IMG/VR virus record: IMGVR_UViG_3300046786_000613
DNA from: an uncultured virus (IMG/VR IMGVR_UViG_3300046786_000613)
Taxonomy: Duplodnaviria > Heunggongvirae > Uroviricota > Caudoviricetes
DNA length: 20,000 bases
Strand: one strand, 5' to 3'
Shown here: one piece after another, positions 1,426 to 19,352 of the stretch
Position numbering within the stretch: the stretch's first letter is position 1
Layout: each line of letters begins with the position of its first letter
Made by a program: the position numbers and the translations under genes
The notes under the pieces: generated by a model
Seen by the model: the letters and a program-made list of their open reading frames with translations, nothing else
The model's database searches: none
What the model was told of the DNA's origin: nothing

Positions 1426-2736
1426 TTATCCTCGAATCAAATCATCAATACCCGAAACTCCACCGCCTTCTTCAAAGAATCCAAATCGTTTTTTTGGTGC
1501 TTCTGCTTGGTTTTGTCGCATTTTACCCAAAGATATGACATCTCGGTCACGTTGTGCTAAAAGAGTTCTTCCATCGTCTGAATTAACAATATAATCACCT
1601 GTTATTTCGTGTATTTCTTTGATTACTCCTGTGTTTTCTTCTCCGTTGTCATCAAAAACAATTTCTTGACCTACTCTTCCACCATCTTCAAATTTACCTT
1701 TACGATTATTCAAAGGCTTTTCATAAGATTCACGCTTGTTATGTCTTGCTCGGTCTAAATGCCAAGAACGACCCGTATTCACGTTACCACCTCTTGCGTA
1801 TTTTTTCTTTTTCGAGGCTTTGCGTTTGGCAATTTTGGCTTTGATTGAATCTTTTACTGAATTACCAATTCTGACTTCTGTTCCAAATCCAATTTTTTGA
1901 GGTCTTGCACGACCAATTTTGTAGCCAATATATGCACCTACCATACCACTTAAAATTGTACCGCCAATCCCGTAATTATTGGAAAAAACATACATTTCAC
2001 CATCGTGATGAATCACATCAAGGTCATAAGATAAAGAACGCTTCCAAGCACCTTCATAATCTTTGGAAACCCAAGAAGGAATTTCATCTCCATAACCCAT
2101 ATCTTCAAGGTATGTAGTTAAATCTGCTCTACGCTCGGCTTCTTCGTCTGCTAATTCTTCGGCTTGACGTTCTGCTTCGTCTTCATCCATATCGGGATTC
2201 TCGTAAAGAATATCCTCTCGGATTCGGTCAACATCTTCACCATAAATAACTCTTTCAGTCACATCATCAACGTAAATATGGTTTGACCAAAAATCGCTAC
2301 CTAATTCGCCAAGTTGGCTTTCATATTCGTGTACAATGTCTGTTTCATCGTTACCATCTACAACAAACATCAAACTATCTGCAAGTGCTTGGTAATCATC
2401 ACTACCTGTATCACCTGCACGTTCAACTAATACGGCTACAGGAATACCTCTGTCTTCTGCAACTTCAGCAATTTCGTAAAGTTGTTGAAAATCTTGCTCA
2501 CCCATATACTCTGAAGCCAAAGTAGAAGGAATGCCTTCGTAATCGTGAACTGCCCATTCTTCACGGACTTCACCATCTATTGACTTATATTTTTCGGTCA
2601 ATTCATCAAGCATATCTTGAATAGCACCCATCAAATCAGATGCTTCTAAATAGTCTGCTAAATCAAACCATTTGCCCTCTAAACGACCATTATTGTAGTC
2701 TGACAAACTTGCTACATAAATTCTCATATCTTCCAT
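1426..2736 (-). CDS. ardA: ArdA-family antirestriction (DNA-mimic) protein fused to extra C-terminal modules
   Basis: N-terminus MRIYVASLSDYNNGRLEGKWFDL, EEWAVHDYEG, high acidity and a DYE...GEMYVFSNN end match ArdA hallmarks (aa 1-254). The remaining ~180 aa are separated by YGIGG/YARGG/FEDGG/FEEGG motifs. Confidence 0.85.
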   Translation of the reverse strand: MEDMRIYVASLSDYNNGRLEGKWFDLADYLEASDLMGAIQDMLDELTEKYKSIDGEVREEWAVHDYEGIPSTLASEYMGEQDFQQLYEIAEVAEDRGIPVAVLVERAGDTGSDDYQALADSLMFVVDGNDETDIVHEYESQLGELGSDFWSNHIYVDDVTERVIYGEDVDRIREDILYENPDMDEDEAERQAEELADEEAERRADLTTYLEDMGYGDEIPSWVSKDYEGAWKRSLSYDLDVIHHDGEMYVFSNNYGIGGTILSGMVGAYIGYKIGRARPQKIGFGTEVRIGNSVKDSIKAKIAKRKASKKKKYARGGNVNTGRSWHLDRARHNKRESYEKPLNNRKGKFEDGGRVGQEIVFDDNGEENTGVIKEIHEITGDYIVNSDDGRTLLAQRDRDVISLGKMRQNQAEAPKKRFGFFEEGGGVSGIDDLIRG

Positions 2737-2748
2737 AACTGCCTGTTA

Positions 2749-4803
2749 TTATTGTCCTCTACGATTACGTAACATTGAACCTACTCCACCGCCTTTAGCG
2801 TGTGATTTTTTAGTGGTCTTGAATCTACTTAATGGCATCCATTGAGAAATTTTGCCATCTCCATATTCATCTATTCTGATAACTTTTACTCTTCCACCAA
2901 AAGAAGGGTCATAATTCACAACTTTTAATTTAACTCCTGTATTTGCAGTTAAAATATCTCCTTCTTTTATCGCACCACCTTTGCCAAAGGCTTTTGAGCG
3001 TATTCCTTTGTCAAGGTTAACTACATAGTTTTTATTGTAACCATCTCTAACTTGAACTTCGTCAAAACCAAATTGTCCGTAATCTCTAACTATTTCATCG
3101 CCAACTCTCAATCCGTGTTCGGTCATTCCGCCTTTAGCAAAAGAATCAGTAAATTCATATTGGTAGCCATTATAATGCAAAGCATATCCACTAAAACCAC
3201 CTTTTCTACGAACATATCTTTCTTTGGTTTTGCCACCATCTTCAGTTACAATGATTTCTCTACCATTACCAATGACTTTCAATAAAATTGCACCGCTTGG
3301 TTTTAAAGTAGAATTACTTTGACCACCCATCAATTCTTTTCCGATTTGACCACCTGTTTTATATTCTTCTTCTTCTTTTTTAATTAATCCCTCATTAACA
3401 AGTTCATCAGTTAAATCAGAGTAACTAAAGTCAAGACCTTGAGTTGTCATTGAATAATAACCACCTTTGTTTTCCATCAACCAATCCATAACTTCATCTT
3501 TGTCAAAAACGTAGTCATCTCTTTTCAAATCATCTAAAAAGTATTCATAACTTTCGTATTCGGCTTCATTTTGCATTTCGTAATACAAGTCTTCGATATT
3601 TTCAAATCCTAATGGGTAATCATCAGTTGTGTCAATCCATTCTTGAGCAGGTTCTCCAAATACATAAGCATTTTGACCATTATATCCTGCGTTTTCAACT
3701 ACGATATTTTCGGGATAGTTTTCTTCAAAATAACGAATAGCAACTTTGTCTAAAAAGTCACCTCCGTAATCCGTGTAAGCAAAAGAAATAACTACATTGT
3801 CACCAAGTGAATTTCCTTCAATGCCTAATTTTTCTCTTAACTCGTCTTTCAAGTCTTCGGATGCAAAAGCATCGTCAACATACTCTAATCTCGCATCTTC
3901 ACCGAACATACGACCACCTTTTCCATAAGAACTAACTCCACCGCCTTTTCCAAATTGACTTGGATTAACAGAACTTGAAGATAAATTTGATTGTTGGATG
4001 TTCATTACTTGAGTAGCACCATCTGTCATACCACCAAAGGCATATTTTGACAATAACTTGTCAATATCTGAACGCAATTTAATCAAGAACTCTTTTTGTG
4101 AATCCTTGTCAAATTTACCAAGTGACGTAGCAATGCTTGTAAGTAATTCTGAAGTATCAATAACTACACGCTTAACAATAGTTTTTGTCTTTTCAGCAAC
4201 TTTTTTCTCAACTTTCGCTTCGACTGCCTCTTTTTTCGCTTTTGGCGTTTTAAGAGTCTTGTCTTTTGCTACTTCTGCTTTTGCCTCTTTTTCGGCTTTA
4301 TCTTCAACCGCTTCGATTTGTTTTTCAATCTTTTCAGCAACATCTTTAGTAGCACTTTCAATTACCGCATCCGCAGTTTTTTCTGATGTTCCTTCGATGA
4401 GGTCGCCTTTTTTATCAAGTTTCTGAACACGCTTTTTATTTTCTGCACTTGCTTGTTCTGCTTTACGTCTTCCTTCTTGTGCTTTTGTTCTTAATGCACG
4501 ATATTGCTCAATAATGCTCTCGCATTCTTCTTCGGTTTTTCCCGTTTTGCGTTTTATTTCGGCTTTTGCCGTTTCAATATCGTCTGCCGACTTTTTTGTT
4601 TTAGATGCCGTTGATTTTTTAGCCGTAGCAGAAGGTTTACGACCTCTTTTTGATTTTGGCTTCTCTCCTTCTAATTCTTTAATTTCAGCAGAGAACTTAT
4701 CAACTACTGCTTGGAACTTGGCACGAACTTCAGCACTTAAAGATTGGTCTTGTGCGTTTTTTCTATATTTTGCCAATTGTTCATCGGTTGGTCTTTTTTC
4801 CAT
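2749..4803 (-). CDS. modular protein: basic K/A/E-rich N-terminal region with AT-hook-like KRGRKP, acidic central module, SH3/KOW-like C-terminal modules
   Basis: 684-aa ORF with seven [FYH]xxGG motifs between compositionally distinct blocks; -7 element at 4831-4838. Confidence 0.8.
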   Translation of the reverse strand: MEKRPTDEQLAKYRKNAQDQSLSAEVRAKFQAVVDKFSAEIKELEGEKPKSKRGRKPSATAKKSTASKTKKSADDIETAKAEIKRKTGKTEEECESIIEQYRALRTKAQEGRRKAEQASAENKKRVQKLDKKGDLIEGTSEKTADAVIESATKDVAEKIEKQIEAVEDKAEKEAKAEVAKDKTLKTPKAKKEAVEAKVEKKVAEKTKTIVKRVVIDTSELLTSIATSLGKFDKDSQKEFLIKLRSDIDKLLSKYAFGGMTDGATQVMNIQQSNLSSSSVNPSQFGKGGGVSSYGKGGRMFGEDARLEYVDDAFASEDLKDELREKLGIEGNSLGDNVVISFAYTDYGGDFLDKVAIRYFEENYPENIVVENAGYNGQNAYVFGEPAQEWIDTTDDYPLGFENIEDLYYEMQNEAEYESYEYFLDDLKRDDYVFDKDEVMDWLMENKGGYYSMTTQGLDFSYSDLTDELVNEGLIKKEEEEYKTGGQIGKELMGGQSNSTLKPSGAILLKVIGNGREIIVTEDGGKTKERYVRRKGGFSGYALHYNGYQYEFTDSFAKGGMTEHGLRVGDEIVRDYGQFGFDEVQVRDGYNKNYVVNLDKGIRSKAFGKGGAIKEGDILTANTGVKLKVVNYDPSFGGRVKVIRIDEYGDGKISQWMPLSRFKTTKKSHAKGGGVGSMLRNRRGQ

Positions 4804-4830
4804 TTTTTATTTTTTGATATAAATGTGTAA

Positions 4831-4838
4831 CAAATTTA
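4831..4838 (-). promoter_or_regulatory. Bacteroidota-type -7 promoter element (TAAATTTG)
   Basis: caaattta on the + strand in the 4804-4847 intergenic gap. Confidence 0.55.
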
Positions 4839-4847
4839 GGTTTTTTC

Positions 4848-7800
4848 CTATTCAAATTCCATTAATTCTCGCAAGTCTTCAATAATTCTCATAGTTTTCT
4901 TTTTCTCACGAGGACTTTCAAACTCACTTAACTCAAGTAATTCATCTATAATTCTTTGCGTTGGAGAAATAACTTGAATTTCATCGGATTTTTCTACTGC
5001 AACTTCTACAGGTGAAATTTCCGCTTGTTTTTGCTCTTTTACCTTTTTCTGCACTTTTTCAAGTTGTTCTTCGTCTGAATTTTTGAAAACAGATAGCATT
5101 GCATTTCCTAAATAATCACTATTTGGAGTTGAAAAAGATGATACCCTTGCCGAAATAGATGAGCCTAAACGAATTTCTTCGCTATTCAACGCTTCAATAC
5201 GTCTAATTACCTCTTGAACCAATTCATCCATAACTTGTGGGTCATCGAATTGTTTTGCCTCAAGAGCAAGTGTATTGATTTTGGTTTTTTGAGTATTAAT
5301 TAAGTTCTCAACATCTTGGTAACTATTGATACCTAATGGTTGCAGTTTTTTCTCTTCAGTTGCTTTGAACTCTGCTAATGTCATCGGTAAATCTATGTTA
5401 TAGAATTTACGATAGTAAGTTGCAAACAAACCGCCTCTTTCAGTATTTTTCCAATTGTCTACCAAAGCAGTCCAAGAATCGGGTAAGCCGTTAAATTCAA
5501 TTGTTTTATACCTTAAGGCATCAAAATTATTAATAGTTGTTTTCAACATTTGTGGCAAAGAATAAATCTCATCCGTACTTTGTGGTGGAACTATTTCAGA
5601 AGGATTTGCGGTAACGTAGTATTTAACATACCTGTTGTAATCATTTTCGATTCCTAACGATTCCAATTTTGGATAAAGAATAGTTCCAATGTATTCCGAA
5701 ATATCTTTGATGTTTTCGTTTCGTTCCTTGTTGCTATAAACAAAAGGTTCGGGGTATTTTGTAGGTTCTACTTTTTTCTTCTCACCTGTTGTTTTCTCAA
5801 CAACAACGATGTTTCTATTTACAATGTTCAATTCCTCTAATTCATCCACATCAATAGAAATAGGAATCATATTTTCTTTGAAATTACCATTGGCAACAGA
5901 CATTATTGAATTAGGATTCTCTCGATAAAAATCTTTTAAAAGAATAGCCAATTGTTTTTTTGTTTCCTCATCGAAATCATCGAAATCGGTTCCTACATCA
6001 TAAAAACTTGGCTTTTCTAATTCTGATAATTTCAATCTTCTTACCGCTTCTTCTATGCTTCTATTATCCTCGTTATTATTTCGATATTGATAACTAATGT
6101 GATAATAAAAAGAAGAAAGTACATTATTTCCGCTACTATTTGTAACAACTTCTGCAATTCCTTTTTTGCGACCTTTTTTGGTGTCAAACTCTACTTCATC
6201 ACCTTCAACGATAGGAATAGTTTTAGCAGGAATAAGTTCACGCCAATTTTTTGAATATCCAAGTGGATAGCCAATCTTTTGTTCTTTCATCACCTTAACC
6301 ATCAATTGAATTAATTCTTCGGGCGTATAATTGAACAATTTATCAAATTGCATTCTCCATAAAGGATTGCTTACATTCGGAAAAACAAGATTATATGGTG
6401 AATTTCTGTCAAAATATGAAAAGAATCTTTCGCTTACTAAACTATAGATGTTCCTATTACCTTCTAACATACTTTCTTTAGGAAAACCTCTACTTGTTAA
6501 GTATTGACTTTCTGAAGTATTGTAAAGTTCATTTAAAAAATTTGCATAGTTCTCTTGTTTCAATAAAGGTTTGTCAATCAAATCGGGTCTGATTTGAGAA
6601 ATTACATAGTGCATTCTGAATCTAAAATCTTCTTTGATATTATCATTAAGAGGCATATATTTTATCTCAAGGGACTTTTTGAAAATACTTTCAATAGCAA
6701 GATAACTACTCAAAATTTCACCTTCTTTCGTTTTTTCCTCTTCTATTTTATCAATACGATATTCTGCCTCAAGTTTTGCAATTGCTTGTGGGTCTGTGAG
6801 TAGTTCGTATTTTAATTCAGCAGGATTGAAAGCGGTTGTATCTAACTCATTTGTATTGCCGTTTTTAGTCCAAATTTGATTGATTCGTTCTGTTTTATCC
6901 TCAAGTTTTTGGAACATAAAGATGTCAATACAATCAGCCATTAATGGAGTCACAATACGGACATTTGCAAACGCATTTCCTTGTCGCCAAATACGACCTT
7001 CAACTTGAACCATATCAGTTGGGTTAAAGTCAAGGAAACAATTGTATAATGCTGAAGCATAATCCTGTAAGTTAATTCCTTCTTTGATTGATTCTGAACC
7101 AATCAATACTTTCACACGCTTACTATCTTCAAGTTGGGTGTATTTTCCTGTTTCGGGATTCAAAACACGACCCAAAAAGGCATCTGCTACTCTTTGTTTA
7201 TTGTCATAACGCTTCTTACCAATGTAATTTCCATCACCACGAATAATACCAATCTCATCAAGTTCAAAACCAACAACTTCCACTAAATAGTCACGCAACA
7301 ATTCAAATGCCTTTGTTCCAAAGTTCATATAAATTACTTGACCACTCATTTTAGGACTTTCCTCGCTATTAGCGTGATATTGTTTAATTGCTTTGATACA
7401 TTCCATCACATAAAGCAATTTTGGAGATTGTTCTACATACATTCTACCTGTAGGTTCTTGTTTAAAGCCACTACACTTGAATAAGTATGGGTTCAATGCA
7501 ATTTGACGACCCCACATAAGGCATTGTAATGCTTTTGCGGTGGCTTTTGCTTTTTCACCTTCTTTCGTTCCATCCGCTAAATTATCTGCATCTTCAATGT
7601 CAATTTCTGCTGAACCTTCTTCGCCTTCTTGAGTCGATTTAGGTTTCTTTTCAACATATTTTCCGTATGAAGTTGTATTTCTACTTGCCTCATTGCATAA
7701 TTCCTCGTATGTTAATTCGCCTTGAGCGTACATCCTTACTTTACCCCATAATTCAAGTTGTATGTCAGACATACGCAAAGTCGTTGATATGAAGTTTTCT

Positions 7801-10622
7801 TTTGCAAATTCAACGATTTTACCATCAATCATTTGGCGTTTTAAAGGTAACACCCATTTATTTGGTCTAATTACCGCTTTATCTTCTTCCTCACGGCTTG
7901 ATTTATCAAATACACGATAAACATACTTCTGCAAAGAAATAAGGTTTGTCCATCCAATGAATTTGTTTCTCTTAACAATTGTCAAGTCAGTTCTGAAGTC
8001 GTCTGAATATTCAATCTTGGCATAAGTATCAAAGAAATCTTTCAAAATACCCATTTCTGCATCGTAAAGCATTTCGTAGTTCAAAAACGAAAGCATAGTG
8101 TAGATTTGTAATGGACTATTTGTGAATGGTGTTGCTGAAAGTAAAATGGTATTACCCATTTTGTTATAAAACTGAACATAACGAGTTAAAAACCAAAGTT
8201 TTTCGGCTCTTGATGAAGCCTCTTTTCCACCCGAAGTTTCACGGATTTTATTGTATGGATTAAATTCACGTTGAATGCGGATTTTACCTGTTTTTTTATC
8301 TGCTTTTCCTGCTTGAATTTTTTTAGGCTCTGAAACTACTTTGGTAAATAAATTGTTGAAGTTATGTGCTTCATCAACTACAATCATATCAAAGTTTGTT
8401 GAATCTGAATTAATTATAATTGGCTCAACAAATTTTTTCTTTTTTTCACCAACTGCACCGCCTTCACCAAAACCTCCTAAATCGTCATCATCAGAAAAGT
8501 CTTCATTATTTGGTTCAATGTTCGCAGGTGGCTCATTATTGTATTCATCTGATAAATCTTCATCAAACTCAATGCTTTCTTCGTTAAATAACCCTTTACT
8601 ATGCGCTTTTACAAATCCTTCAACTATAGGCTCACTACGAACATCACCGCCCATTTCCATAATTGAAACGGCTTCTTCTACCCAAGTGTAGTCAAGGTTT
8701 TCTTTTGAAAATTGAAATGATTCTGTTGCCTCGTATGTACATAGGTTAATTCCATCTACCGCATTGTTTCCAAGTGTGTTGTAAATACCTGCACCATTAT
8801 AAAACATATTCAAACGGCTATTATTTTTTGTAGGGTCAAATTCAGAACCTAACCCACGCAAAATTTCTTGACCAAACTGAAAGTAAACTTGATTTGGAAC
8901 AATAACTAAAGGTCTTTTTGCAGTACCCAAGTCTAATGCTTGTTTCATCGCAAAAATTGAACAGAAAGTTTTTCCTAATCCTACTCCATAAGCCAATCCA
9001 ACACTACCTCTCGTAAGGTAATAGCGTACCGCACGAAGATTAGATTCTTTGAGAACAAAAAGATGTCGGTTATCTAAATACTTTTTGTATGTAAAACCAA
9101 TAGGAACTTCGTCTAAAACAGGTTCAACGTAAGAATTATAAATTGAGTTCCAAATGTATTCTACTTTCAATTGGTCTTCGGGTGTTAAACCTTCAGCCAA
9201 AAATTGTGAAAACAAACGCTCACCAACTTTTCTTGCATCATCTTGAACCCTTGCCCATTTTTCCTCACCATTCTTTTCTTTGGTAAAAGGATTTGAAATA
9301 GGCTTTAAGTAATAATCTTTAAGTTCTGAAATGCCAAGAGTTGTATTTGACCATTGAATACCATATTCAGCAGATTGAATACCTCTACCTGCGTCTTTAC
9401 ACCACAAAATAAAACCTTCGTAAAGGCTAATTACTTTTTTATTGATGAAATTTAATCTTGCACTACCACCTTCTTCTCCAATTAAGTCCTCTACTCGCTC
9501 TCCTTTTTTGAAAGAAGTATAAACTTGGAAATTTTGTTCAATGGTTGCTTTATCTTTTGGTGAAACAATTGAATTGATTTTGATGTCCGATGATAAAGAA
9601 GAAATTGGAAGCAAACTTAAACGCATAGACTTGTCTTCTGAACGAACACTCAATCTATTTTTATTTGTTTGTTGCCAAATTGGCTCAAGTGTTGAAACGT
9701 GAAGGTCATAAATTGATTGACCAAATCGCTTGATTATTTCATCCTTTCTGTTTGTAAGACTTGCCCATTTTTTCCAAATGTTTCCACTCTTATAAATTAC
9801 TTTTGGTTGAAGACGTTCTCCAATTGGTGAGGTTGGGTCAAAAAATAACGCACCTCTTTTCATTAATTCTAAAATGTCAACCGCTTGAGCAGGGTATGAA
9901 GACCCGTATTTTTCAGACCAATCTCCACCAAGTTTTTTTCTGTTTTTATTTTGAAGATAGATGAAGAAGGCTCTTTTATCAAATGAAGAAATTTTGCTAT
10001 TGTAAAGTTCATCAACTTCATCAAATGTCCACATTGCGGATTCAATATCTTCATTCTTTTCTGCGGTTTTAAGTTCTGCCAATGCCAATTTTGATGCCTC
10101 AAGTTTTTCTTGAGCATTTTTTAGTTGGGAATCAGTTAAACTTTCAATATCAACAATAGGTGATGCTACGCTAACTTGAGGGTCATCACCATAAATTTGT
10201 GAATAATCGGGTGCTAACAATTCATCGAAATTCTCAAAATTCGCAAACTCATTTGAGCCTTCATAGTCTTGCAAATCAATTTCTTGTTCATTCAAATATT
10301 TACTACCTGCATCTACTAATTCAAGTCTGAATTTGCTTTCATTTCCTTGTTTCAATGTAATTTTACCATTGTCAACTAAAAAAGCATTGGAAAAATCCCA
10401 AGAGGAATCTGCTCTACTTGATGCAAAAATATTCCATTCATCGTTTTTCTCAACGCCTTGAATTGTTATCGGTGAATCATAGAAATAATAATTGTAACCT
10501 CTATCATCTACCAACCAATCACCTCTTGTTTCATCGTTTGCATTCAAAAAAACAATTGGATAGCCAAGTCCTTCAAAAAACTCTGTTATATACTTTACGT
10601 TGGATTTATCAAATCTTGCCAT
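4848..10622 (-). CDS. DarB-like SNF2/SF2 helicase (1924 aa) with no recognisable methyltransferase domain
   Basis: Motif I GVGLGKT (8967-8987), Ia LVIVPN, Ib TYE, II DEAHNFNNL (DEAH 8364-8375), III LSATPFTNS (LSATP 8127-8141), V EGINLQ, VI QVEGRIWRQGN (6975-7007). DEAHNFxNL and EGRxxRQGN are characteristic of the P1 DarB / conjugative-element helicase clade. Confidence 0.85.
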   Translation of the reverse strand: MARFDKSNVKYITEFFEGLGYPIVFLNANDETRGDWLVDDRGYNYYFYDSPITIQGVEKNDEWNIFASSRADSSWDFSNAFLVDNGKITLKQGNESKFRLELVDAGSKYLNEQEIDLQDYEGSNEFANFENFDELLAPDYSQIYGDDPQVSVASPIVDIESLTDSQLKNAQEKLEASKLALAELKTAEKNEDIESAMWTFDEVDELYNSKISSFDKRAFFIYLQNKNRKKLGGDWSEKYGSSYPAQAVDILELMKRGALFFDPTSPIGERLQPKVIYKSGNIWKKWASLTNRKDEIIKRFGQSIYDLHVSTLEPIWQQTNKNRLSVRSEDKSMRLSLLPISSLSSDIKINSIVSPKDKATIEQNFQVYTSFKKGERVEDLIGEEGGSARLNFINKKVISLYEGFILWCKDAGRGIQSAEYGIQWSNTTLGISELKDYYLKPISNPFTKEKNGEEKWARVQDDARKVGERLFSQFLAEGLTPEDQLKVEYIWNSIYNSYVEPVLDEVPIGFTYKKYLDNRHLFVLKESNLRAVRYYLTRGSVGLAYGVGLGKTFCSIFAMKQALDLGTAKRPLVIVPNQVYFQFGQEILRGLGSEFDPTKNNSRLNMFYNGAGIYNTLGNNAVDGINLCTYEATESFQFSKENLDYTWVEEAVSIMEMGGDVRSEPIVEGFVKAHSKGLFNEESIEFDEDLSDEYNNEPPANIEPNNEDFSDDDDLGGFGEGGAVGEKKKKFVEPIIINSDSTNFDMIVVDEAHNFNNLFTKVVSEPKKIQAGKADKKTGKIRIQREFNPYNKIRETSGGKEASSRAEKLWFLTRYVQFYNKMGNTILLSATPFTNSPLQIYTMLSFLNYEMLYDAEMGILKDFFDTYAKIEYSDDFRTDLTIVKRNKFIGWTNLISLQKYVYRVFDKSSREEEDKAVIRPNKWVLPLKRQMIDGKIVEFAKENFISTTLRMSDIQLELWGKVRMYAQGELTYEELCNEASRNTTSYGKYVEKKPKSTQEGEEGSAEIDIEDADNLADGTKEGEKAKATAKALQCLMWGRQIALNPYLFKCSGFKQEPTGRMYVEQSPKLLYVMECIKAIKQYHANSEESPKMSGQVIYMNFGTKAFELLRDYLVEVVGFELDEIGIIRGDGNYIGKKRYDNKQRVADAFLGRVLNPETGKYTQLEDSKRVKVLIGSESIKEGINLQDYASALYNCFLDFNPTDMVQVEGRIWRQGNAFANVRIVTPLMADCIDIFMFQKLEDKTERINQIWTKNGNTNELDTTAFNPAELKYELLTDPQAIAKLEAEYRIDKIEEEKTKEGEILSSYLAIESIFKKSLEIKYMPLNDNIKEDFRFRMHYVISQIRPDLIDKPLLKQENYANFLNELYNTSESQYLTSRGFPKESMLEGNRNIYSLVSERFFSYFDRNSPYNLVFPNVSNPLWRMQFDKLFNYTPEELIQLMVKVMKEQKIGYPLGYSKNWRELIPAKTIPIVEGDEVEFDTKKGRKKGIAEVVTNSSGNNVLSSFYYHISYQYRNNNEDNRSIEEAVRRLKLSELEKPSFYDVGTDFDDFDEETKKQLAILLKDFYRENPNSIMSVANGNFKENMIPISIDVDELEELNIVNRNIVVVEKTTGEKKKVEPTKYPEPFVYSNKERNENIKDISEYIGTILYPKLESLGIENDYNRYVKYYVTANPSEIVPPQSTDEIYSLPQMLKTTINNFDALRYKTIEFNGLPDSWTALVDNWKNTERGGLFATYYRKFYNIDLPMTLAEFKATEEKKLQPLGINSYQDVENLINTQKTKINTLALEAKQFDDPQVMDELVQEVIRRIEALNSEEIRLGSSISARVSSFSTPNSDYLGNAMLSVFKNSDEEQLEKVQKKVKEQKQAEISPVEVAVEKSDEIQVISPTQRIIDELLELSEFESPREKKKTMRIIEDLRELMEFE

Positions 10623-11166: not shown

Positions 11167-13035
11167 TTAATATTTAGTCAAAGTGTAAATCAACGTATAA
11201 TTTGCTTCAGATGTAATACCTTCTTTAACCACTAAAAACTTTTTTGAATTGGTAAAAATCATCATTTGATTTTGTGCCATAGAACCTTGATTCACAGATA
11301 TTGAATTTTGGAATTTTTGTAGTTTTTCCATAGTGCTAAACTCACAAACTCCTAAAGCAATTCCTTTCTTTTCAGTTTTATAAAGTAATTGACACAAATT
11401 ATCTGTTAAAGGGTTTGATTGTGGGTAAACGTGAATGATTGCATCCATTCTCTTCATTTCAAATTCATTGTAAAGAAAACGTCTTTTGCCACGATTAACT
11501 ATTTCGGAAATTTCTTTTTCTATTTGAGCAAATTGATTTTTTTCATCAAAACTTACCATAATTGCACTTAAATAATTCGGTGCGTAAGACAAAATGTTTC
11601 CGACTCCAATATTGCTCAAATATAACTTTTCGATTCTGTTTGAAGTATTGTAATATTCAAATAGTAAACCATAAATTTTTTGAATAATTGATGGCGACAA
11701 TTCGTTTGCAATATTGTTCCCTTTAAAAGTAGAAAGTTTATTGCTCAAAGATGAATCAACAGAAAATGTATCATCTATTTTGAGTAAAAGTTTTACAATT
11801 TTTTTATCGTGTTCACCTAAATTCAAAGATTGATATGGCTTAATTGCACCGCCATTTCCGTATTTTTCCTCATCAAAACCTACTATGTTTATGATTTCAT
11901 TAGGAACAAGCATATAAGAACCTGTATTAGCAAATTCCAAAGCAGTTGCCGTTCCATCGTTCAACAAAAAAGTGAACTTGTACACTTTACCTTTTGGAAA
12001 AACCGATTCAGTAAGATACTTACCATCTTTTCTTCTGATAATTCCATTGTAGTCTTCTGTAAATACAATATGTACTATTGCTCTTTGCTCACCTGTGTAG
12101 CCACCTACATTGTATTTTTTATTGCTTTTTCTATGGCTTTTTTGCTTTTGAAAATCTTCAATAGCATCAGATACCTTTTTGCTACTTTCCATTTTATCAA
12201 GTTCGATGTAGTAATTCTCATCTTCATCTAAATGGTCTTCAGCAATAGCCTTTGCAACTTCTTCATCGGAAACTCCTTCTTTCTTGAATTTTTCAATAGT
12301 GTCTTTGTGTTCCAATTCGTGTTCCGTTCCTTTTTTTACTTGGTCTTTTTTCCACATTTGATACCAATCAAAGTCACGAACATCACCGCCACCTTCAAAT
12401 TCTTCTTCTTCATCTAAACGATAAAAGTCAAGTTCAGAGGCATCGTATGTTTTTTCTGTGTCATCTGCGAACTTCAAATGAAATTTACGACCATAGTCTT
12501 TAATTATCAATCCCATTTTGTTTTCACTCTTCACACGAGCGGAATCACCAATTTCTGCTTTTGACCATTCGATATTTCCACCACCTTCGTAACTATCAGA
12601 TAAAAACTCCTTGCGAAAATATCTACGCAATTCATCCATACCTTTTAAACGATTTGAGTATTGAGCATCTTGAGTAGAATACACTCCTTTTTCAAATTCA
12701 ACTACGTTACCATCATCCATCCATTCTTTGAAAGAAGATTCTTGTTCTTCATCAAGAATTTTACCTCCTGTGGCATATTCGTATTTTTTTCCTGTGACAT
12801 TATCACAATCAATTTGAACACCATTTCCGTTTGCTGAATTTATCTCTGATGCGATTTCGCAAGTTGTCATTTTTTTTCCTTGAAACTCGAACTTTTTATC
12901 GGATGCCATATTGCGTTTGTTAATCACGCCTTCGCCTCCTTCTAATTCTACTTTTTGACCTGTAGATTTTACGACCATCGGAATACCGCCTTCTTTATGA
13001 CTTTTTCCTTTAGTTATACCCCCTGTTGCAGACAT
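11167..13035 (-). CDS. modular protein: GxSHxxGGI/ExEGGE domain, SH3-like module, DUF5661-like module, C-terminal degenerate N6-adenine methyltransferase-like fold
   Basis: 622-aa ORF with five [FY]xxGG motifs at module edges. KGTEHELEH...IAEDHLDEDENYYIELDKME matches DUF5661. LYLSNIGVGNILSYAP and MDAIIHVYPQ sit where MTase motifs I and IV would be. Confidence 0.75.
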   Translation of the reverse strand: MSATGGITKGKSHKEGGIPMVVKSTGQKVELEGGEGVINKRNMASDKKFEFQGKKMTTCEIASEINSANGNGVQIDCDNVTGKKYEYATGGKILDEEQESSFKEWMDDGNVVEFEKGVYSTQDAQYSNRLKGMDELRRYFRKEFLSDSYEGGGNIEWSKAEIGDSARVKSENKMGLIIKDYGRKFHLKFADDTEKTYDASELDFYRLDEEEEFEGGGDVRDFDWYQMWKKDQVKKGTEHELEHKDTIEKFKKEGVSDEEVAKAIAEDHLDEDENYYIELDKMESSKKVSDAIEDFQKQKSHRKSNKKYNVGGYTGEQRAIVHIVFTEDYNGIIRRKDGKYLTESVFPKGKVYKFTFLLNDGTATALEFANTGSYMLVPNEIINIVGFDEEKYGNGGAIKPYQSLNLGEHDKKIVKLLLKIDDTFSVDSSLSNKLSTFKGNNIANELSPSIIQKIYGLLFEYYNTSNRIEKLYLSNIGVGNILSYAPNYLSAIMVSFDEKNQFAQIEKEISEIVNRGKRRFLYNEFEMKRMDAIIHVYPQSNPLTDNLCQLLYKTEKKGIALGVCEFSTMEKLQKFQNSISVNQGSMAQNQMMIFTNSKKFLVVKEGITSEANYTLIYTLTKY

Positions 13036-13076: not shown

Positions 13077-13116
13077 TGTAAATATATTGTACAATAAAAC
13101 AAGTGTGTATTAAATG

Positions 13117-13447: not shown

Positions 13448-13452
13448 CGTGT

Positions 13453-13983: not shown

Positions 13984-14021
13984 AACTATTATTTTTTTTT
14001 GGTTTGAAATTATTTAATGCA

Positions 14022-14051
14022 CAAATATAGTGTTATTTTAAAATATAACAA
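14022..14051 (-). promoter_or_regulatory. Bacteroidota-type promoter (-7 TATATTTG at 14022-14029; -33 TTG at 14049-14051)
   Basis: 19-nt spacing between elements, upstream of the 13983 ATG. Confidence 0.6.
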
Positions 14052-14096
14052 GGAATATATTCTATAATAACATTCGAGTCTGATTCGAGTTTATAT

Positions 14097-14128
14097 AAAA
14101 AAGAAAAGGGCAGTCAAATGACTACCCC
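14097..14128 (-). terminator. Rho-independent terminator
   Basis: Minus strand GGGTAGTCA-TT-TGACTGCCC followed by TTTTCTTTTTT, right after the 14150 stop. Confidence 0.7.
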
Positions 14129-14149
14129 CTCCTTTCTACGGAAACATCT

Positions 14150-14572: not shown

Positions 14573-14574
14573 AA

Positions 14575-14931
14575 TTATTTGTTTTTAATTGTTAGTTCTT
14601 CGCCTGTTAATGCAAAGTATAGGTTTTGAAGTTGGTGTACATATTTAGGTGATTCCTCTAAAATTGTCCAACTATTCCAATAAGTTCTTCCATTTTTACC
14701 ACTTAAAATTGTATCTCCAAAATAAATTGATAACTTATTTTTATTGTATGAAATTTCACCTCCCGAAACTTCAAACCCAAACTTCAACAACCATTCTTCG
14801 GTTAATGGGATAGGATTAAATTCATTTTCTATTCCGTATGATAACAGAGTTAAATGATTTGTATTTACATAAACTATATTCCCTTGTTTATTATAAATCA
14901 AATTACCAATTCTCAATTCACTTGCTTTCAT
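14575..14931 (-). CDS. conserved Bacteroidota-phage hypothetical protein (ELRIGN...PIPLTEEWLLKFGF...YVHQLQNLYFALTGEEL family)
   Basis: Recognisable, widespread family signature in Bacteroidota phages and prophages; function unknown. Confidence 0.85.
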   Translation of the reverse strand: MKASELRIGNLIYNKQGNIVYVNTNHLTLLSYGIENEFNPIPLTEEWLLKFGFEVSGGEISYNKNKLSIYFGDTILSGKNGRTYWNSWTILEESPKYVHQLQNLYFALTGEELTIKNK

Positions 14932-14933
14932 AA

Positions 14934-15356
14934 TTATTGTTCTTTTTGTTGAAAATCATCTAAAGATGCTTCTTTATTCCATTTTGCTATTCTTCCATTC
15001 TCATCAATTTTCAAAATCACATAATCACCAAAAGATTGATTATATAAATCTAAAATTTTCGGAACATAACCTTCTTTTGAAACGATGTCTTTATCATTTT
15101 CATCAAGTAAATAATAATTGCCATCATCACAAACTTTGTAATGTACGTCTGCTATTACTCCTTTTTTCCAATTTAAAATAATTCCTTCTTCAACATCAAT
15201 TACAATTCTCCATCTATCGCCAAATCGACAAGGAATTAAATCACCTAAAGTATCTTCTTTGTAATTTACAAGAGCATCTTCCCAATATCGAACTCCAATA
15301 TCAGCAATTAGAATTTTTACTTCTACTTCTTTAATTATTTTAATTTTTACTTTCAT
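14934..15356 (-). CDS. conserved phage hypothetical protein
   Basis: VRYWEDA.VN...W...ID...G.I.NW..G...VHYKVCDDG.Y.L.D signature; operonic spacing. Confidence 0.8.
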   Translation of the reverse strand: MKVKIKIIKEVEVKILIADIGVRYWEDALVNYKEDTLGDLIPCRFGDRWRIVIDVEEGIILNWKKGVIADVHYKVCDDGNYYLLDENDKDIVSKEGYVPKILDLYNQSFGDYVILKIDENGRIAKWNKEASLDDFQQKEQ

Positions 15357-15357
15357 T

Positions 15358-15687
15358 TTACTTGTTTTTAAATTGTGTTGTTTGCATTAATGTTTCGTAT
15401 TTATATCTGCGGTGTTCTCTTTGGGTAGCATTGTGTTCTTCACCACCTTTGTAGTATTGTTTCCACCCACCGCTTTTTTCTCTGTCTGCGAGGTTTTTTT
15501 CCTTTCTTTCGGGAAATAGTTCAAACTGAATCAATCGCTTGTTTACGTTAAATTGCTTGGCTAAAGAATGTATTGAACGACCCTCCTCGTATAGAACGTG
15601 AATCCTTTCACGCATACAAGGCAGTAGTTTCACCCTCCTATCAAAGAAAGGTGAATCTAACTTCGCTTTTTCGGTTTTAAATGGCAC
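15358..15687 (-). CDS. HTH-containing phage protein
   Basis: IHVLYEEGRSIHSLAKQFNVNKRLIQF HTH pattern; GTG start overlapping the upstream gene. Confidence 0.7.
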   Translation of the reverse strand: MPFKTEKAKLDSPFFDRRVKLLPCMRERIHVLYEEGRSIHSLAKQFNVNKRLIQFELFPERKEKNLADREKSGGWKQYYKGGEEHNATQREHRRYKYETLMQTTQFKNK

Positions 15688-15901
15688 GTTCCTCTAAATT
15701 TTCAATGATTGACTCATACAGAGAGAAAAAAGGAATAATGTATATCACTATTGCTACTTTCATCATAAGTAAAAATATGAAGTCACAATTCTCTTCAATC
15801 TGTGTTAATGCAGTTGCGTTCCATCCAAAATAGGTGTTATAAATAACCCAAAACATTAAGTTAAGTTGAATAATTGCTTTGGCAAGTTTTATCTTTTTCA
15901 T
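15677..15901 (-). CDS. small membrane protein with two predicted TM helices
   Basis: Hydrophobic stretches AIIQLNLMFWVIYNTYFGW and FIFLLMMKVAIVIYIIPFF; ATGA overlap with the upstream gene. Confidence 0.65.
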   Translation of the reverse strand: MKKIKLAKAIIQLNLMFWVIYNTYFGWNATALTQIEENCDFIFLLMMKVAIVIYIIPFFSLYESIIENLEERAI

Positions 15902-16467
15902 TTCTCTTCGTTTTTAAAGTAAGGGTTCTGTTTGTTGTTTGTAGTCAAAACTTGATACATTACGGAATCCACAACTTTATTGTAAAAATCCATCTCTTGC
16001 GCATCAAATTTGTATTTGCCATATCCTGCACCTTTAAGCATAAAGTCTTTAAGATTATCTACGCATTTCTTGTCGGTTATAAATTCAGACAAGAAGTCAA
16101 GCATTTCTTGATAGTATTCAGTTACGAATTTTTCTCCTTCATCTTTTCCACTACCATCGCACCAATGACAATCTTCAATTTCTTGTTCTTCATCCTCATT
16201 ATAACTCTCTTCATATCCCCATCCACCACATTGATGACACTCCTCCATTCTCACATCTACTGCATTGCAGTTTCCGTTGTTACAGAAATCGTAAAACAAA
16301 CGACTTATGCTACGAATCATTTCTCCGTGAATAGTCGGTGCATATCCCGAAGCAGGAACTAATTTATCATATAGCATATCGTATGTATTTTGATACGCTC
16401 CATCGTTACCCCAATATGACTTGCCAAGAGGAGTTACTAATTTTTGTGTTTTCGTTTTCGTTTCCAT
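15898..16467 (-). CDS. phage hypothetical protein with an inserted DnaJ-type CxxCxGxG zinc ribbon
   Basis: YW...G.YQ...LVPASG...GEMIR...RLFYD..NNG core plus CHQCGGWG and CHWCDGSG repeats. Confidence 0.8.
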   Translation of the reverse strand: METKTKTQKLVTPLGKSYWGNDGAYQNTYDMLYDKLVPASGYAPTIHGEMIRSISRLFYDFCNNGNCNAVDVRMEECHQCGGWGYEESYNEDEEQEIEDCHWCDGSGKDEGEKFVTEYYQEMLDFLSEFITDKKCVDNLKDFMLKGAGYGKYKFDAQEMDFYNKVVDSVMYQVLTTNNKQNPYFKNEEK

Positions 16468-16478
16468 AGATATTGATA

Positions 16479-16664
16479 TTATTTTATTGTAACTACTTTC
16501 ACATTAACGAGATTTGCTTTTGATTTGCAATCAACATTAATCGCTTGTAAATACGCAAGGTATAGGTCAAGATTAAAGTTGCCTCCCTTGTCTTGTTTAA
16601 CTGATTTTCCCTTCCAAAATGACATACAATCCATAAGGTTAGGTCTTGGTTTTTGGTTTTCCAT
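16479..16664 (-). CDS. small hypothetical protein, first gene of the leftward accessory operon
   Basis: 61-aa ORF directly downstream of a promoter-like element and co-oriented with the operon. Confidence 0.6.
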   Translation of the reverse strand: MENQKPRPNLMDCMSFWKGKSVKQDKGGNFNLDLYLAYLQAINVDCKSKANLVNVKVVTIK

Positions 16665-16680
16665 AGGTCTTAATTTTCTG

Positions 16681-16767
16681 TAAAGGTAAAAACATTTTCA
16701 ATTCAAACAAATTTTTTTTGTTTTTTTTGAAAAAAATTTTGTGATATGTGAAAATGTATTAAATTTG
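16681..16767. promoter_or_regulatory. divergent Bacteroidota-type promoter pair
   Basis: Leftward: TACCTTTA (16681-16688) with TTTG at 16708-16711, 19-nt spacer. Rightward: TTTG (16738-16741) and TAAATTTG (16760-16767), 18-nt spacer. T and A tracts lie between them. Confidence 0.6.
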
Positions 16768-16790
16768 TATCAAATAAAAACTTTTACATT

Positions 16791-17255
16791 ATGGAAACAA
16801 TGACTATTGAAACAAAGATTGAGATTACCAAAGAGGCTATCGAAAGTATGTTAGTAACGGCTTATGAAGGTGGTATTGACTATTGGTGCTATATCTCTTT
16901 ACAAGACAAAAGAAACGCATCTCTTTGGTTAAAAAAAGAAATCGAAGAGAAAAGATTGGAACGTGATAGTTCAATTCACTATGAATGGGTGGATGCAATG
17001 TTTCAAGGCTATCCGAATGCTATTCGTATATACGATGTTGAGGAGGCTTTTGAGGCTGAAACATACGAAGATTTTGATAATATAGAACCTATTGGTTACT
17101 TGTCTATGGAAAACATCAAAAAAGGTCTTCAGAAAGCATCAAAGGAATATCCAAATGTTTTTCAGCAATATTTTCCGCAATATATGAATGGTGATTCATC
17201 AGATGCAGATGTTATTTTTCAGTTGATTTGCTTGGATGATGTTGTTTATGGATAA
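16791..17255 (+). CDS. conserved phage hypothetical protein (A.EGGI.YWC ... DAD.I.Q....D.VYG family)
   Basis: Recognisable family signature; promoter upstream; A-rich start context. Confidence 0.8.
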   Translation: METMTIETKIEITKEAIESMLVTAYEGGIDYWCYISLQDKRNASLWLKKEIEEKRLERDSSIHYEWVDAMFQGYPNAIRIYDVEEAFEAETYEDFDNIEPIGYLSMENIKKGLQKASKEYPNVFQQYFPQYMNGDSSDADVIFQLICLDDVVYG

Positions 17256-17457
17256 TCAAAGAGAAGAAATTTGCTATGGAACTTTACTTGTTGCAGATGA
17301 ACAAGTCGTAAGAGGTAAAGGTGCAAACTTGAAAATAAAGCGAAAAGTTGAAAAAGCCGTGTTCTTGAAGAACGATACCGAATGGAAAGGCTTGAAAATT
17401 TTAGAGGTGGTGAGTTTTAAAGTCGTAGGACATACAAACTATCCTAAAAACAGATAA
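17248..17457 (+). CDS. small hypothetical protein
   Basis: MDNQREE... starts at ATG 17248, overlapping the previous stop, and ends just before the bidirectional terminator. Confidence 0.65.
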   Translation: MDNQREEICYGTLLVADEQVVRGKGANLKIKRKVEKAVFLKNDTEWKGLKILEVVSFKVVGHTNYPKNR

Positions 17458-17470
17458 AGTCGCTGAAAAC

Positions 17471-17504
17471 AAAAAAAAGAGGGGTTATTTACCCCTCTTC
17501 TTGT
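17471..17504. terminator. bidirectional Rho-independent terminator between convergent genes
   Basis: AAGAGGGGT-TATTT-ACCCCTCTT stem (17477-17499), with an A run on the left and a T-rich tract on the right. Confidence 0.8.
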
Positions 17505-19352
17505 TTATTGAAATGCTTGAAGTTTTTCTTTAGCACAATCTTTCCAACTTTTATAATCACGAAAATTTCGGATGTCGCAATTATTTCTAATATACAATTC
17601 CAATTCATTTTTTGGTGCAAAACCAAATTCATAACCACTTTTTATGTTGTCAAAGTGATTATTTATTATTCTGTTTGTTTCTTTTTTCAATCGTTTGATG
17701 TCTTCATATCTTTCAGTTGCTTTTGATGGATTTTTCATTTGATACTTTTTGTATTCATTATTGAAATAACCTGTAATCAAATTATCCAATTCAAGAGCCT
17801 CAACTAAATTCAATTGATATTTACTACTTGATTTTAATTTCTCTTTCAAATCATCAATAACAGAATGTTGATACGCATATTCTTTTACATCAAAAACCCA
17901 AGACGTTTGCCAAGTAAAACGGGTATTTGTACGCATTTCATCTTCTTTGGCTAATTCTTTTGCTTCTTTAGCACGTTTTTCACGTTGCTCCAATAATAAA
18001 TCACCATATTTTCCTTCAAGTGCCTGTTGAACATCTAATGCTTGTTGCTCATAAAGTTGAGTAAGTGGGATGTGACCACCTGCACACGCTCTTAAAACTC
18101 GAATCAATGAATCTACAAATTCTGTAAAGTGATTGGTAATTGGTAAGGCAACTACTTTTTCTTTTTGACCTTCTATTTTTAACTGCTTTGCATAAATTGC
18201 TTTTTCTGCATCAGTCATTTCTTCGGTATTGATATGGCTATCAACTAAACTATCAATTTTTTTTGCTTTTTTAGTTTCGTATTTGTCTATGTTAGCAAGA
18301 AGTTGAGTCTGAAAGTCAAGGCAATGAGAAAACTCGTGAATAAGAGTATTAAAATGAAATGAAGTTTCTGTGTATTCGGGAATCAGTAAACCTGTTTTCT
18401 TTTCTTGATATAAAGTACCCCATCCATCTTGATTATTATCAAAATTTCCAACCATACCAATTTCTTGATAATACCATCTACCATCGTATTCAAAATTAAC
18501 AGGTCTTTGAATTTTTGCTTCAGCACCTTCCCTGTCGGCAGTTGCAATCCACATAGCATAACTACGACCATCTTTTGCTCTCGGTGTATGTACTAACCAA
18601 ATTGGAACAGGCATAGTGTATTCAAAATACTCTTGCGCTTGTTTCAACCAATTCTCACACGCTTTGAATGAGATATTGATACGACCCAAGTAATTGTAAA
18701 ATAACCACATTGAGTAATCTTTTTCAAAAATTGCTTTTGATACCAATTGATATTCTCCTGTCAATAGAAAAGAAACCCCTGCTTCCTCGTTTATTTTGCG
18801 CATATACTCATATCCACTAAAGTCATAAGTGTTTATTTGTTTTCCCTTTGGAAACTCGCTTAAATCGCTTCTTTCGAGGTCAACTCCAAATTTGCGCAAA
18901 ACCTTTTCAAAACTTTCTTTGAGTTTAGGGTTTGGATTAGTTCCGTTTATGTAATTACGCATTGCTTCAATTTCGTATTGCGTAATTTTACCGCCTTCAC
19001 CGAACTTTCTGCGCATACCGCCTTTGGCATACCAATTTTCTCCTGTTTGCGTATTCAACGCCATACCTCCTTTTTTCATTTGAAGTTCTTTAGAATCAAT
19101 CCTTGCAGTTTTACCTCCCATAACGGCACTATACACCCGTGCCATTGCCCATTGCTCTTTGGACTTAACATTTGGTCTTACGCTCGTTGGATTTGTTTTG
19201 TAAGCACCAATTCCCTTGTTGTAGATTTGTTGCAAACCTTTCATTGACACACCCGTGTCTTTTGATATTTCTTCCAAAGTATGTGTTTGGTTTTTCTTAT
19301 ACCCATACTTTGTGTTATACTTGTCTTTGTATGTTACATAACCTTTTTTCAT
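17505..19352 (-). CDS. DUF5824-like N-terminal domain fused via three GG motifs to a zincin-like (HExxH) metallopeptidase domain
   Basis: LQQIYNKGIGAYKTNPTSVRP...QWAMARVYSAVMGGK resembles DUF5824; then MKKGG/YAKGG/FGEGG; TLIHEFSHCLD (HEFSH at 18324-18338) with a later NHFTEF as a possible third Zn ligand. Confidence 0.75.
   Translation of the reverse strand: MKKGYVTYKDKYNTKYGYKKNQTHTLEEISKDTGVSMKGLQQIYNKGIGAYKTNPTSVRPNVKSKEQWAMARVYSAVMGGKTARIDSKELQMKKGGMALNTQTGENWYAKGGMRRKFGEGGKITQYEIEAMRNYINGTNPNPKLKESFEKVLRKFGVDLERSDLSEFPKGKQINTYDFSGYEYMRKINEEAGVSFLLTGEYQLVSKAIFEKDYSMWLFYNYLGRINISFKACENWLKQAQEYFEYTMPVPIWLVHTPRAKDGRSYAMWIATADREGAEAKIQRPVNFEYDGRWYYQEIGMVGNFDNNQDGWGTLYQEKKTGLLIPEYTETSFHFNTLIHEFSHCLDFQTQLLANIDKYETKKAKKIDSLVDSHINTEEMTDAEKAIYAKQLKIEGQKEKVVALPITNHFTEFVDSLIRVLRACAGGHIPLTQLYEQQALDVQQALEGKYGDLLLEQREKRAKEAKELAKEDEMRTNTRFTWQTSWVFDVKEYAYQHSVIDDLKEKLKSSSKYQLNLVEALELDNLITGYFNNEYKKYQMKNPSKATERYEDIKRLKKETNRIINNHFDNIKSGYEFGFAPKNELELYIRNNCDIRNFRDYKSWKDCAKEKLQAFQ

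Follow-up and report, generated by a model that had tools for sequence, protein, structure and literature searches.

Why one short glycine-rich peptide should recur in large, otherwise unrelated proteins is the question raised by a 20,000-nucleotide stretch of DNA (hereafter the window) from an uncultured virus of the Caudoviricetes (IMG/VR record IMGVR_UViG_3300046786_000613). The proteins are numbered here P0001 (ArdA fusion), P0002 (684 amino acids, aa), P0003 (helicase), P0004 (622 aa) and P0005 (615 aa), and a first-pass annotation had proposed that a peptide of the form [FYMH]-x-x-G-G marks module boundaries in all five, as a protease site or as a tag for packaging or ejection. The analysis reported here shows that a heptapeptide, [F/Y/M/W]-x-x-G-G-x-[V/I/M], often with a preceding Lys, forms the standard joint by which cassettes that fold independently are connected in a large family of phage polyvalent proteins; this joint may be a cleavage site, a docking handle or a hinge only.

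The strict pattern [FYMH]xxGG (the short form) has 22 copies across the five proteins: all 20 copies listed in the first-pass annotation were found in the genes to which it had assigned them, and HKEGG (P0004, residue 13) and MEMGG (helicase, residue 655) are additional; HKEGG sits within a conserved module and is not a joint. The earlier count of V, I or M two residues past GG in 15 of the 20 copies was reproduced, and the remaining five carry M or Y one residue past GG. When the five proteins were shuffled 5000 times and the counts pooled, the 22 copies stood against 2.84 on average (10 at most), 18 copies of [FY]xxGG against a mean of 2.11 (maximum 9), and 14 copies of [FY]xxGGx[VIM] against a mean of 0.31 (maximum 4), and 0 of the 5000 shuffles equalled the observed count for each of the three patterns; since the pattern was chosen after inspection of the data, these figures are not clean P values, and the excess is still large. 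With this comparison, which had been called for when the motif was first described, the enrichment over shuffled sequence is established for the proteins taken together.

Taken singly (4000 shuffles per protein, short form unless stated), the 684-aa protein (seven copies, 0.66 expected) and the 622-aa protein (six copies, 0.57 expected) exceed all of their shuffles (0/4000 each), the ArdA fusion has four copies for 0.55 expected (reached in 10/4000 shuffles), and the 615-aa protein is moderately enriched (three for 0.37; 24/4000). The two helicase copies are not significant in the short form (0.71 expected; 625/4000); in the extended form, i.e. with V, I or M two residues past GG, they compare with 0.11 expected (17/4000). 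Non-randomness of the motif thus holds in four of the five proteins, and the earlier claim of five is better read as four, the helicase copies showing no enrichment. The 17 other open reading frames (ORFs) of the window (2071 aa) contain two short-form copies and no extended one.

The proposed position at domain edges was borne out. MKKGG follows the DUF5824-like domain of P0005 (Pfam match at residues 4-85), FEGGG and YNVGG enclose DUF5661 in P0004 (Pfam match at residues 230-284, between the two), YGNGG lies upstream of a class I methyltransferase-like fold (Foldseek), and YGIGG at the ArdA end (residue 255) coincides with a break in homology at residue 252. The same arrangement extends to homologues. 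Metagenomic relatives were collected for P0004 (268) and P0002 (236) at E<=0.001, together with 640 cluster representatives for P0005 at E<=1e-3; relatives of all three proteins are mosaic, with identities of 60-95% over 13-66% of the query, and the proteins hosting these matches are of varied length. Among 124 homologues (88,164 aa), [FY]xxGG occurs 679 times, a density of 7.7 per 1000 aa where composition alone predicts 0.63, and in 150 further representatives matched by P0005 the figures are 4.5 against 0.54 per 1000 aa. The -3 position before GGx[VIM] is enriched in M (11-fold), F (5.9), Y (4.1) and W (4.0).

Conservation at junctions in homologues was one of the points on which the idea had been staked, and homology blocks indeed start and end at the motif. 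The ends of BLASTP high-scoring segment pairs between the window proteins and 238 relatives (alignments that are not mutually independent) were scored for position in motif windows: for P0002, where about 9% would be expected, 51/98 internal starts and 83/136 internal ends fall there, for P0004 37/91 starts and 39/78 ends, and for P0001 24/53 starts and 18/37 ends. Gly residues 311, 312, 395 and 396 of P0004 are invariant in 19 full-length relatives of 32-62% identity (alignment A1), and [MFYL]xxGG follows the DUF5824 module within four residues in 129 of 139 modules. Two protein-terminal DUF5824 copies stop at ...ELQMK, directly before the GG position, and proteins that start with the N-terminal module of P0004 begin M-S/T-A-K-G-G; the bulky residue is therefore part of the cassette upstream of the joint, and the one downstream starts with GG-x-[VIM].

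Exchange at the joint is visible at the DNA level. Two contigs (L042 and L045) carry an extra cassette of 313 nucleotides (nt) exactly at the joint at residue 149 of P0004, with flanks of 92-94% nucleotide identity, and both flank alignments overlap on 14 nt of motif DNA, so that the window reading SDSY/EGGGNIE equals SDSY/AKGGGVF...KEKY/EGGGNIE of L042 minus the intervening cassette; in another contig the residue-149 joint is the sole match, with 21 nt perfect. Related phages thus insert, delete and swap cassettes in frame by crossover inside the motif.

Structure models, on which the first-pass annotation had wished to see the copies mapped, place 12 of 13 copies in low-confidence linkers between folded domains, a test that is partly circular in that GG by itself tends to lower the predicted local distance difference test (pLDDT). 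In the AlphaFold2 model of P0004, segments of pLDDT<50 (residues 1-42, 79-91, 147-158, 206-217, 288-291 and 304-315; 16% of the model) hold five of the six copies, the sixth (residue 392) being placed between two confidently modelled domains, in a block with a mean pLDDT of 69, and in the model of P0002 (residues 230-684) such segments (27% of the model) hold seven of seven joints. None of the 13 copies in P0002 and P0004 is buried in a confident core, i.e. the models show the motif in predicted flexible linkers between modules and not in folded cores. The helicase copy FGEGG is located in an acidic low-complexity insertion (...DEDLSDEYNNEPPANIEPNNEDFSDDDDLGGFGEGGAVGEKKKK...; residues ~690-725) that separates helicase motif I from motif II, and is a possible joint.

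What is conserved across lineages is the peptide and not its codons. Within the window, the rare codon pair GGC-GGT encodes 11 of 24 joint copies and 2 of 28 other GG dipeptides (Fisher P 0.001); in distant viral loci the bias is absent (11 of 109 joints against 106 of 718), so the similarity of joint DNA is local to a lineage, and the difference in codons between lineages indicates that selection acts on the peptide. Shared descent, conversion or avoidance of GGAGG are possible causes of the GGC bias. A universal nucleotide signal at the joints was considered and rejected on the same codon counts, and an internal Shine-Dalgarno-plus-start arrangement was rejected as well, in that few joints contain GGAGG and most of the +2 codons are GTT or ATT, not GTG or ATG. 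The first joint Gly is the rare GGC in 12 of 24 copies, whereas GGC is found in 2 of the 28 GG dipeptides elsewhere and for 11% of Gly residues that stand alone, and the sequence [AG]AAGGCGGT recurs seven times in the window, in the same frame each time.

That these are anti-defence polyvalent proteins, as had been suggested, agrees with their domains. The ArdA module of P0001 matches Pfam ArdA (E 8e-15) and an anti-restriction PHROG (E 2e-17), and P0003 matches PHROG families for DarB-like antirestriction (E 5e-25) and helicase (E 6e-27), with weak Pfam matches to ResIII, Helicase_C and SNF2. Several unrelated effector or anti-restriction domains per polypeptide were found in the ArdA fusion, the DarB-like SNF2 helicase, P0004 (DUF5661 with a methyltransferase-like domain) and P0005 (DUF5824 with HExxH). 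No PolyVal-type Pfam family (ART-PolyVal, Kinase-PolyVal, LPD, DarA_C, MPTase-PolyVal) matches the five window proteins; among relatives, 41 of the 82 DUF5824-bearing proteins of 700-1800 aa were scanned with Pfam and yielded ART-PolyVal (20 proteins), Zeta_toxin (three), DarA_C with N6_Mtase (two), and Kinase-PolyVal, LPD3, ArdA and RelA_SpoT (one each). On account of these PolyVal domains in the relatives, the family belongs to the polyvalent proteins as Iyer et al. 2017 defined them, the Pfam families concerned being derived from their work. A 1244-aa protein of a complete 79-kb viral contig (G001) combines the P0004 N-terminal module with ART-PolyVal and RelA/SpoT and is another effector combination on the same scaffold.

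The polyvalent proteins of phages and conjugative elements described by Iyer, Burroughs, Anand, de Souza and Aravind (2017, PMC5512222) are likewise long and multi-domain, with ArdA, DarB-type helicase, methyltransferase, ADP-ribosyltransferase, kinase, RelA/SpoT and zincin-like domains, and their processing by embedded zincin-like metallopeptidases was predicted there. The available text of that paper contains 'linker', 'glycine' and 'GG motif' zero times and to that extent describes no junction signal, whereas the proteins analysed here have one conserved heptapeptide at their junctions and exchange cassettes there. No literature on DUF5661, DUF5824 or a Gly-Gly motif in phage polyvalent proteins was found.

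Some proteins carry a conserved tail past their last joint. The last [FY]xxGG lies 10-19 residues before the C-terminus in 37 of 243 proteins and is followed by a conserved tail, either of the P0002 type, GG-x-[VI]-S-S-M-[LM]-R-N-R-R-G-x (the tail of P0002 itself reads GVGSMLRNRRGQ), or of the P0001 type, GG-G-[VI]-S-G-[IL]-D-D-L-I-[RK]-G; the form GG[GA][VI][SD]G[IL][DS]DLI[RKY]G is common to P0001, P0211, P0215 and P0217, and an end of the RNRRG type was found in 54 of 393 collected proteins. Conserved tails beyond the last joint make a plain hinge insufficient as an explanation.

A link to the virion is suggested by the N-terminal module of P0004 (residues 3-73), which is far better conserved than the remainder of the protein and of which residues 1-42 are modelled at pLDDT<50. 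The same joint and the adjacent conserved module occur, as judged from profile and domain matches, in true tape-measure proteins, with hydrophobic-x-x-G-G joints on both sides of the module every time. It is found at residues 1008-1068 (41.8 bits) of a 1159-aa tape-measure protein that is positive for PF10145 and PHROG, and several times (22 and 19.7 bits) in a 4804-aa, PF20155-positive tape-measure protein in which 23 extended joints read F-G-x-G-G-S-I-P-S-F. This latter protein has cargo of about 3700 more residues, parted by joints and repeated module copies, and by its sequence is best described as a polyvalent tape measure. A 1076-aa protein of Spirosoma panaciterrae DSM 21099 ends with a joint and a tape-measure-type module (QQFARGGVIEGPSHAQGGV...VELEGGEGVINK); since its gene adjoins an anti-repressor-like gene, the protein is probably the tape measure of a prophage in this Bacteroidota genome. 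No tape-measure Pfam or PHROG family matches any window protein, PF10145 and PF20155 matching only the proteins of the contigs G004 and G005 that contain the P0004 module, and the module profile (A2) gave no match in the PDB. The only virion link found points to the tail and not to the head.

Two model tape measures are of interest here. The gpH protein of phage lambda is cut, to yield gpH* and gpHC, in its glycine-rich C-terminal region at a site and by a catalyst that are unknown, and its residues 818-849 bind the hub protein gpI (PMC12617516, in the part available). Within its last 160 residues we find FATGG (733), YATGG (778), MRDGG (842) and FSGGG (848), i.e. four such motifs for 0.74 expected (reached in 86 of 20000 shuffles), and MRDGG overlaps the gpI-bound stretch. 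The T5 protein pb2 is cut after R1127 (PMC10038345, in the part available), and its sequence at the cut, ...FVPR/AEGGMM, places GG three residues after the cut, a loose match to the motif. Both tape measures have x-x-G-G motifs in a glycine-rich C-terminal region, beside or near an experimentally known cut, and their C-terminal piece remains in the tail tip; in contrast to them, no window protein has a tape-measure domain, and no sequence homology to lambda or T5 was detected.

A candidate enzyme is encoded within the window. P0005 carries HEFSH at residues 339-343, and all 15 aligned relatives keep H339, E340, H343, C344, D346 and H408 without change, so that HExxH and a downstream third ligand (H339, E340, H343 and H408), as in zincins, are conserved in the family. 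By this pattern, residues ~125-460 of P0005 are likely to be a zincin-like metallopeptidase. DUF3920 matches four of the 15 aligned members, and the ESM Atlas gave leads, and leads only, to LPD23, SprT-like and ATLF families (scores 0.86-0.87). A complex prediction of P0005 residues 125-615 with P0002 residues 545-684 scored 0.00, which is evidence neither way. No CE-clan, C39 or prohead protease family was found among the 22 ORFs of the window (Pfam, PHROGs), which represents 20 kb of a contig of roughly 70 kb. In contig G001, the 91 of 122 ORFs that were scanned (>=90 aa) include an M23-type metallo-endopeptidase/endolysin and few structural calls, and no head-maturation protease was found among these 91. 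The DUF5661 domain of P0004, a 65-residue helical domain of unknown function, carries HELEH at residues 239-243, the HE[ML]EH pattern being kept in >60 collected relatives, and may be a metal-binding or mini-zincin module.

We rank processing first among the roles of the joint, as a tentative choice that we would put somewhat short of even, on account of the accessibility of the motif, its fixed-position conservation, the terminal tails and the HExxH module, and because Iyer et al. predicted processing and two tape-measure proteins offer precedents for it. A peptide conserved so tightly would be read by something, most likely by a processing protease that would part the cassettes or trim the terminal tails, during assembly of the virion (probably of its tail) or after ejection, with the HExxH module of P0005 as the candidate enzyme in the window; such cutting would be the processing proposed for polyvalent proteins (PMC5512222, in the part available). 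A good deal weighs against processing. Two of the P0004 joints are invariant within a domain order that does not vary among the relatives that cover 66% of the query, and separation there is not obviously useful. Peptidase_M90 matched six of the 15 aligned members of the P0005 family weakly, with a best E of 0.0028 that does not reach the gathering score, and neither the P0005 sequence nor the A4 profile matched a chain in the PDB. No protein family runs, at BLASTP E<=1e-5, through all six contigs compared, namely the window and five viral contigs (four of them incomplete) that have the N-terminal module of P0004 and one or more joint-rich ORFs apiece, so that no universal co-occurring protease is seen. 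The window has no structural genes, the five genes sitting amid replication and regulatory genes. The P0004 module has no BLASTP match to lambda gpH or T5 pb2 and no profile match above shuffled controls, the lambda cut is placed only at ~690-730, upstream of FATGG 733, and in T5 the cut falls three residues before GG, with Arg and not an aromatic residue at -3. A bolder form of the processing reading, in which the joint is the recognition signal of one processing or loading system common to tape-measure proteins and polyvalent effectors, is improbable as it stands; in it, effectors with a tape-measure C-terminal module, such as P0004, would be carried in the tail lumen, yield separate enzymes through cleavage at the joints and reach the cell before the DNA, and the signal would, if real, explain the lambda gpH cut site, which the 2025 Ur-lambda paper (PMC12617516, in the part available) leaves unknown.

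The closest competitor, which we consider rather unlikely, is that the joint is a hinge and a recombination point only, a flexible connector whose bulky residue and V/I/M cap the neighbouring cassettes, whose recurrence permits in-frame exchange, and which is neither cut nor bound; the glycine-rich motifs between the hypervariable segments of T-even gp38 adhesins would be a parallel. Crossovers inside the motif, the 14-21 nt of identity at joints between otherwise unrelated flanks, a GGC-GGT bias that suggests shared descent or conversion of joint DNA, the predicted flexibility of the linkers and the lack of a universal protease in the six-contig comparison all fit a hinge; yet distant lineages free of the codon bias still keep the peptide, generic hinges do not fix specific residues at -3 and +2, the joints are invariant where the architecture no longer varies, and the tails of 11-12 residues past the last joint are left unexplained. 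Unlikely, in our estimate, is a docking or loading handle, by which joint, tails and tape-measure-type module bind the tail hub, the tube lumen or the head interior and the proteins are carried and ejected uncut. The P0004 module is conserved yet predicted to be unstructured alone, a combination typical of stretches that acquire their fold upon binding a partner, and in true tape-measure proteins it is found close to the C-terminus; lambda gpH 818-849 with the overlapping MRDGG 842 is bound to gpI (PMC12617516), and RNRRG-type ends recur among the collected proteins (as counted above); the many internal copies, however, would be superfluous for a single docking event, P0003, P0004 and P0005 have no tails, and both the gene content of the window and the missing homology to lambda and T5 speak against docking as well. 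Cleavage at GG-X by a CE-clan cysteine protease, as by adenain or the pS273R protease of African swine fever virus, would suit the Gly-Gly core and the accessible linkers; the first-pass annotation had drawn this analogy, which does not hold in register, the hydrophobic residue standing at -3 from the first Gly in every copy and one position nearer in the consensus (M/I/L)-x-G-G-X (cut before X), and a site of this type is very improbable because of this register and because no such protease was found in the window. Chance or composition, finally, could appeal to the post hoc definition of the pattern and to helicase copies that are within chance, and is already refuted for four of the five proteins; set against the shuffles, an excess of about 10-fold in hundreds of homologues and the coincidence with breakpoints and linkers, it has next to no probability.

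Gly-Gly sites at junctions of multi-part proteins are known from adenovirus adenain and pS273R, from which the present case differs in the hydrophobic register, in that no such protease was found in the window, and in its bacterial host. In the P1 Dar system anti-restriction proteins are carried in the particle, and the capsid-targeting sequences of T4 are short terminal peptides removed by the prohead protease; the window proteins would be comparable to these if they too were carried in the particle. In the gp38 adhesins of T-even phages, conserved glycine-rich motifs part hypervariable segments, with recombination within or near these short motifs, and jointly build one core in a single domain (Trojet et al. 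2011, PMC3157838, in the part available), whereas the motif described here parts whole, unrelated, independently folding domains in many proteins. New here are the occurrence of the P0004 N-terminal module in true tape-measure proteins, the four motifs in the C-terminal region of lambda gpH, the crossovers at the DNA level and the candidate enzyme. Polyvalent proteins are thought to be a ready-made anti-defence kit delivered with phage or plasmid DNA, and their processing sites have so far been guessed; a single conserved joint is a concrete place to look. The joint also explains the fast re-assortment of anti-defence arsenals and can serve in practice to divide giant phage proteins, hundreds of which lack annotation, into their functional cassettes. 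By the tape-measure and lambda gpH link it is tied to a processing step of a model phage that has long awaited a solution. Coordinates are collected in Table 1.

Table 1. Coordinates of genes, modules, joints and tails (positions refer to the window unless a locus or contig is named).
Feature	Position	Strand	Evidence or remark
436-aa ArdA fusion (P0001)	1426..2736	-	Pfam, PHROG
684-aa protein (P0002)	2749..4803	-	translation; no family
1924-aa SNF2/DarB-like helicase (P0003)	4848..10622	-	Pfam weak, PHROG
622-aa protein with DUF5661 (P0004)	11167..13035	-	Pfam
615-aa protein with DUF5824 (P0005)	17505..19352	-	Pfam
P0001 joints	YGIGGTI 1954-1974; YARGGNV 1780-1800; FEDGGRV 1672-1692; FEEGGGV 1456-1476	-	
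P0002 joints 1-4	YAFGGMT 4024-4044; FGKGGGV 3934-3954; YGKGGRM 3907-3927; YKTGGQI 3343-3363	-	
P0002 joints 5-7	FAKGGMT 3121-3141; FGKGGAI 2968-2988; HAKGGGV 2782-2802	-	
P0003 copies	MEMGGDV 8640-8660; FGEGGAV 8451-8471	-	
P0004 joints	YATGGKI 12757-12777; YEGGGNI 12571-12591; FEGGGDV 12379-12399; YNVGGYT 12094-12114; YGNGGAI 11842-11862	-	
P0004 intramodule copy HKEGGIP	12979-12999	-	inside N-terminal module
P0005 joints	MKKGGMA 19059-19079; YAKGGMR 19011-19031; FGEGGKI 18984-19004	-	
YYKGG	in ORF 15358-15687		short form
HQCGG	in ORF 15898-16467		short form
Joint GG codons, examples	1462-1467, 2788-2793, 3940-3945, 8457-8462, 12985-12990, 18990-18995, 19017-19022		
P0001 C-terminal 11-residue tail GVSGIDDLIRG	1429-1461	-	conserved
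P0002 C-terminal tail	2752-2787	-	translation
P0001 ArdA module	2200-2730		residues ~3-179
P0002 low-complexity N-terminal stretch	4114-4803		residues 1-230
P0002 beta modules	2752-3141		residues 555-684
P0003 acidic insertion	8451-8560		
P0004 N-terminal module	12817-13029		
P0004 DUF5661	12184-12348		
P0004 C-terminal methyltransferase-like domain	~11170-11838		Foldseek class I methyltransferases, E 1e-6
P0005 DUF5824 module	19080-19343		residues 4-91; Pfam E 9e-13
P0005 HEFSH	18324-18338		
P0005 candidate zincin-like metallopeptidase module	17973-18980	-	~residues 125-460; invariant HExxH, C344, D346, H408
4804-aa tape-measure protein	L079:137-14551 (G005 contig 12136-26550)	-	PF20155 at residues 188-375
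1076-aa protein, Spirosoma panaciterrae DSM 21099 scaffold	L064:7205-10435	+	P0004 module near end, 31.4 bits
1244-aa protein of contig G001	L035:9506-13240	+	

The window has a G+C content of ~33%, and every large gene in it is located on the minus strand; small genes around the five encode predicted helix-turn-helix regulators and VRR-NUC and PDDEXK nucleases (PHROG, Pfam). No close cultured phage was found among 50,697 phage records, to which a megablast search with the window and tblastn searches with P0002 and P0004 gave zero matches; P0003 gave distant helicase matches only, with coverage <=31%.

P0002, for which there is no Pfam or PHROG family, has a Lys/Glu/Ala-rich N-terminal region of 230 residues, then a globular domain, then small beta modules, and its model gave nothing at E<=0.001 in Foldseek. 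The two small beta modules between joints at residues 555-684 weakly resemble Tudor/chromo/SH3-like barrels, e.g. those with which UvrD and RapA bind RNA polymerase (Foldseek E ~0.1-0.2, with probabilities as high as 0.99), a likeness between predicted folds that is a lead only. The low-complexity N-terminal stretch stands ahead of the first joint, and a DNA- or nucleoid-binding role is possible for it.

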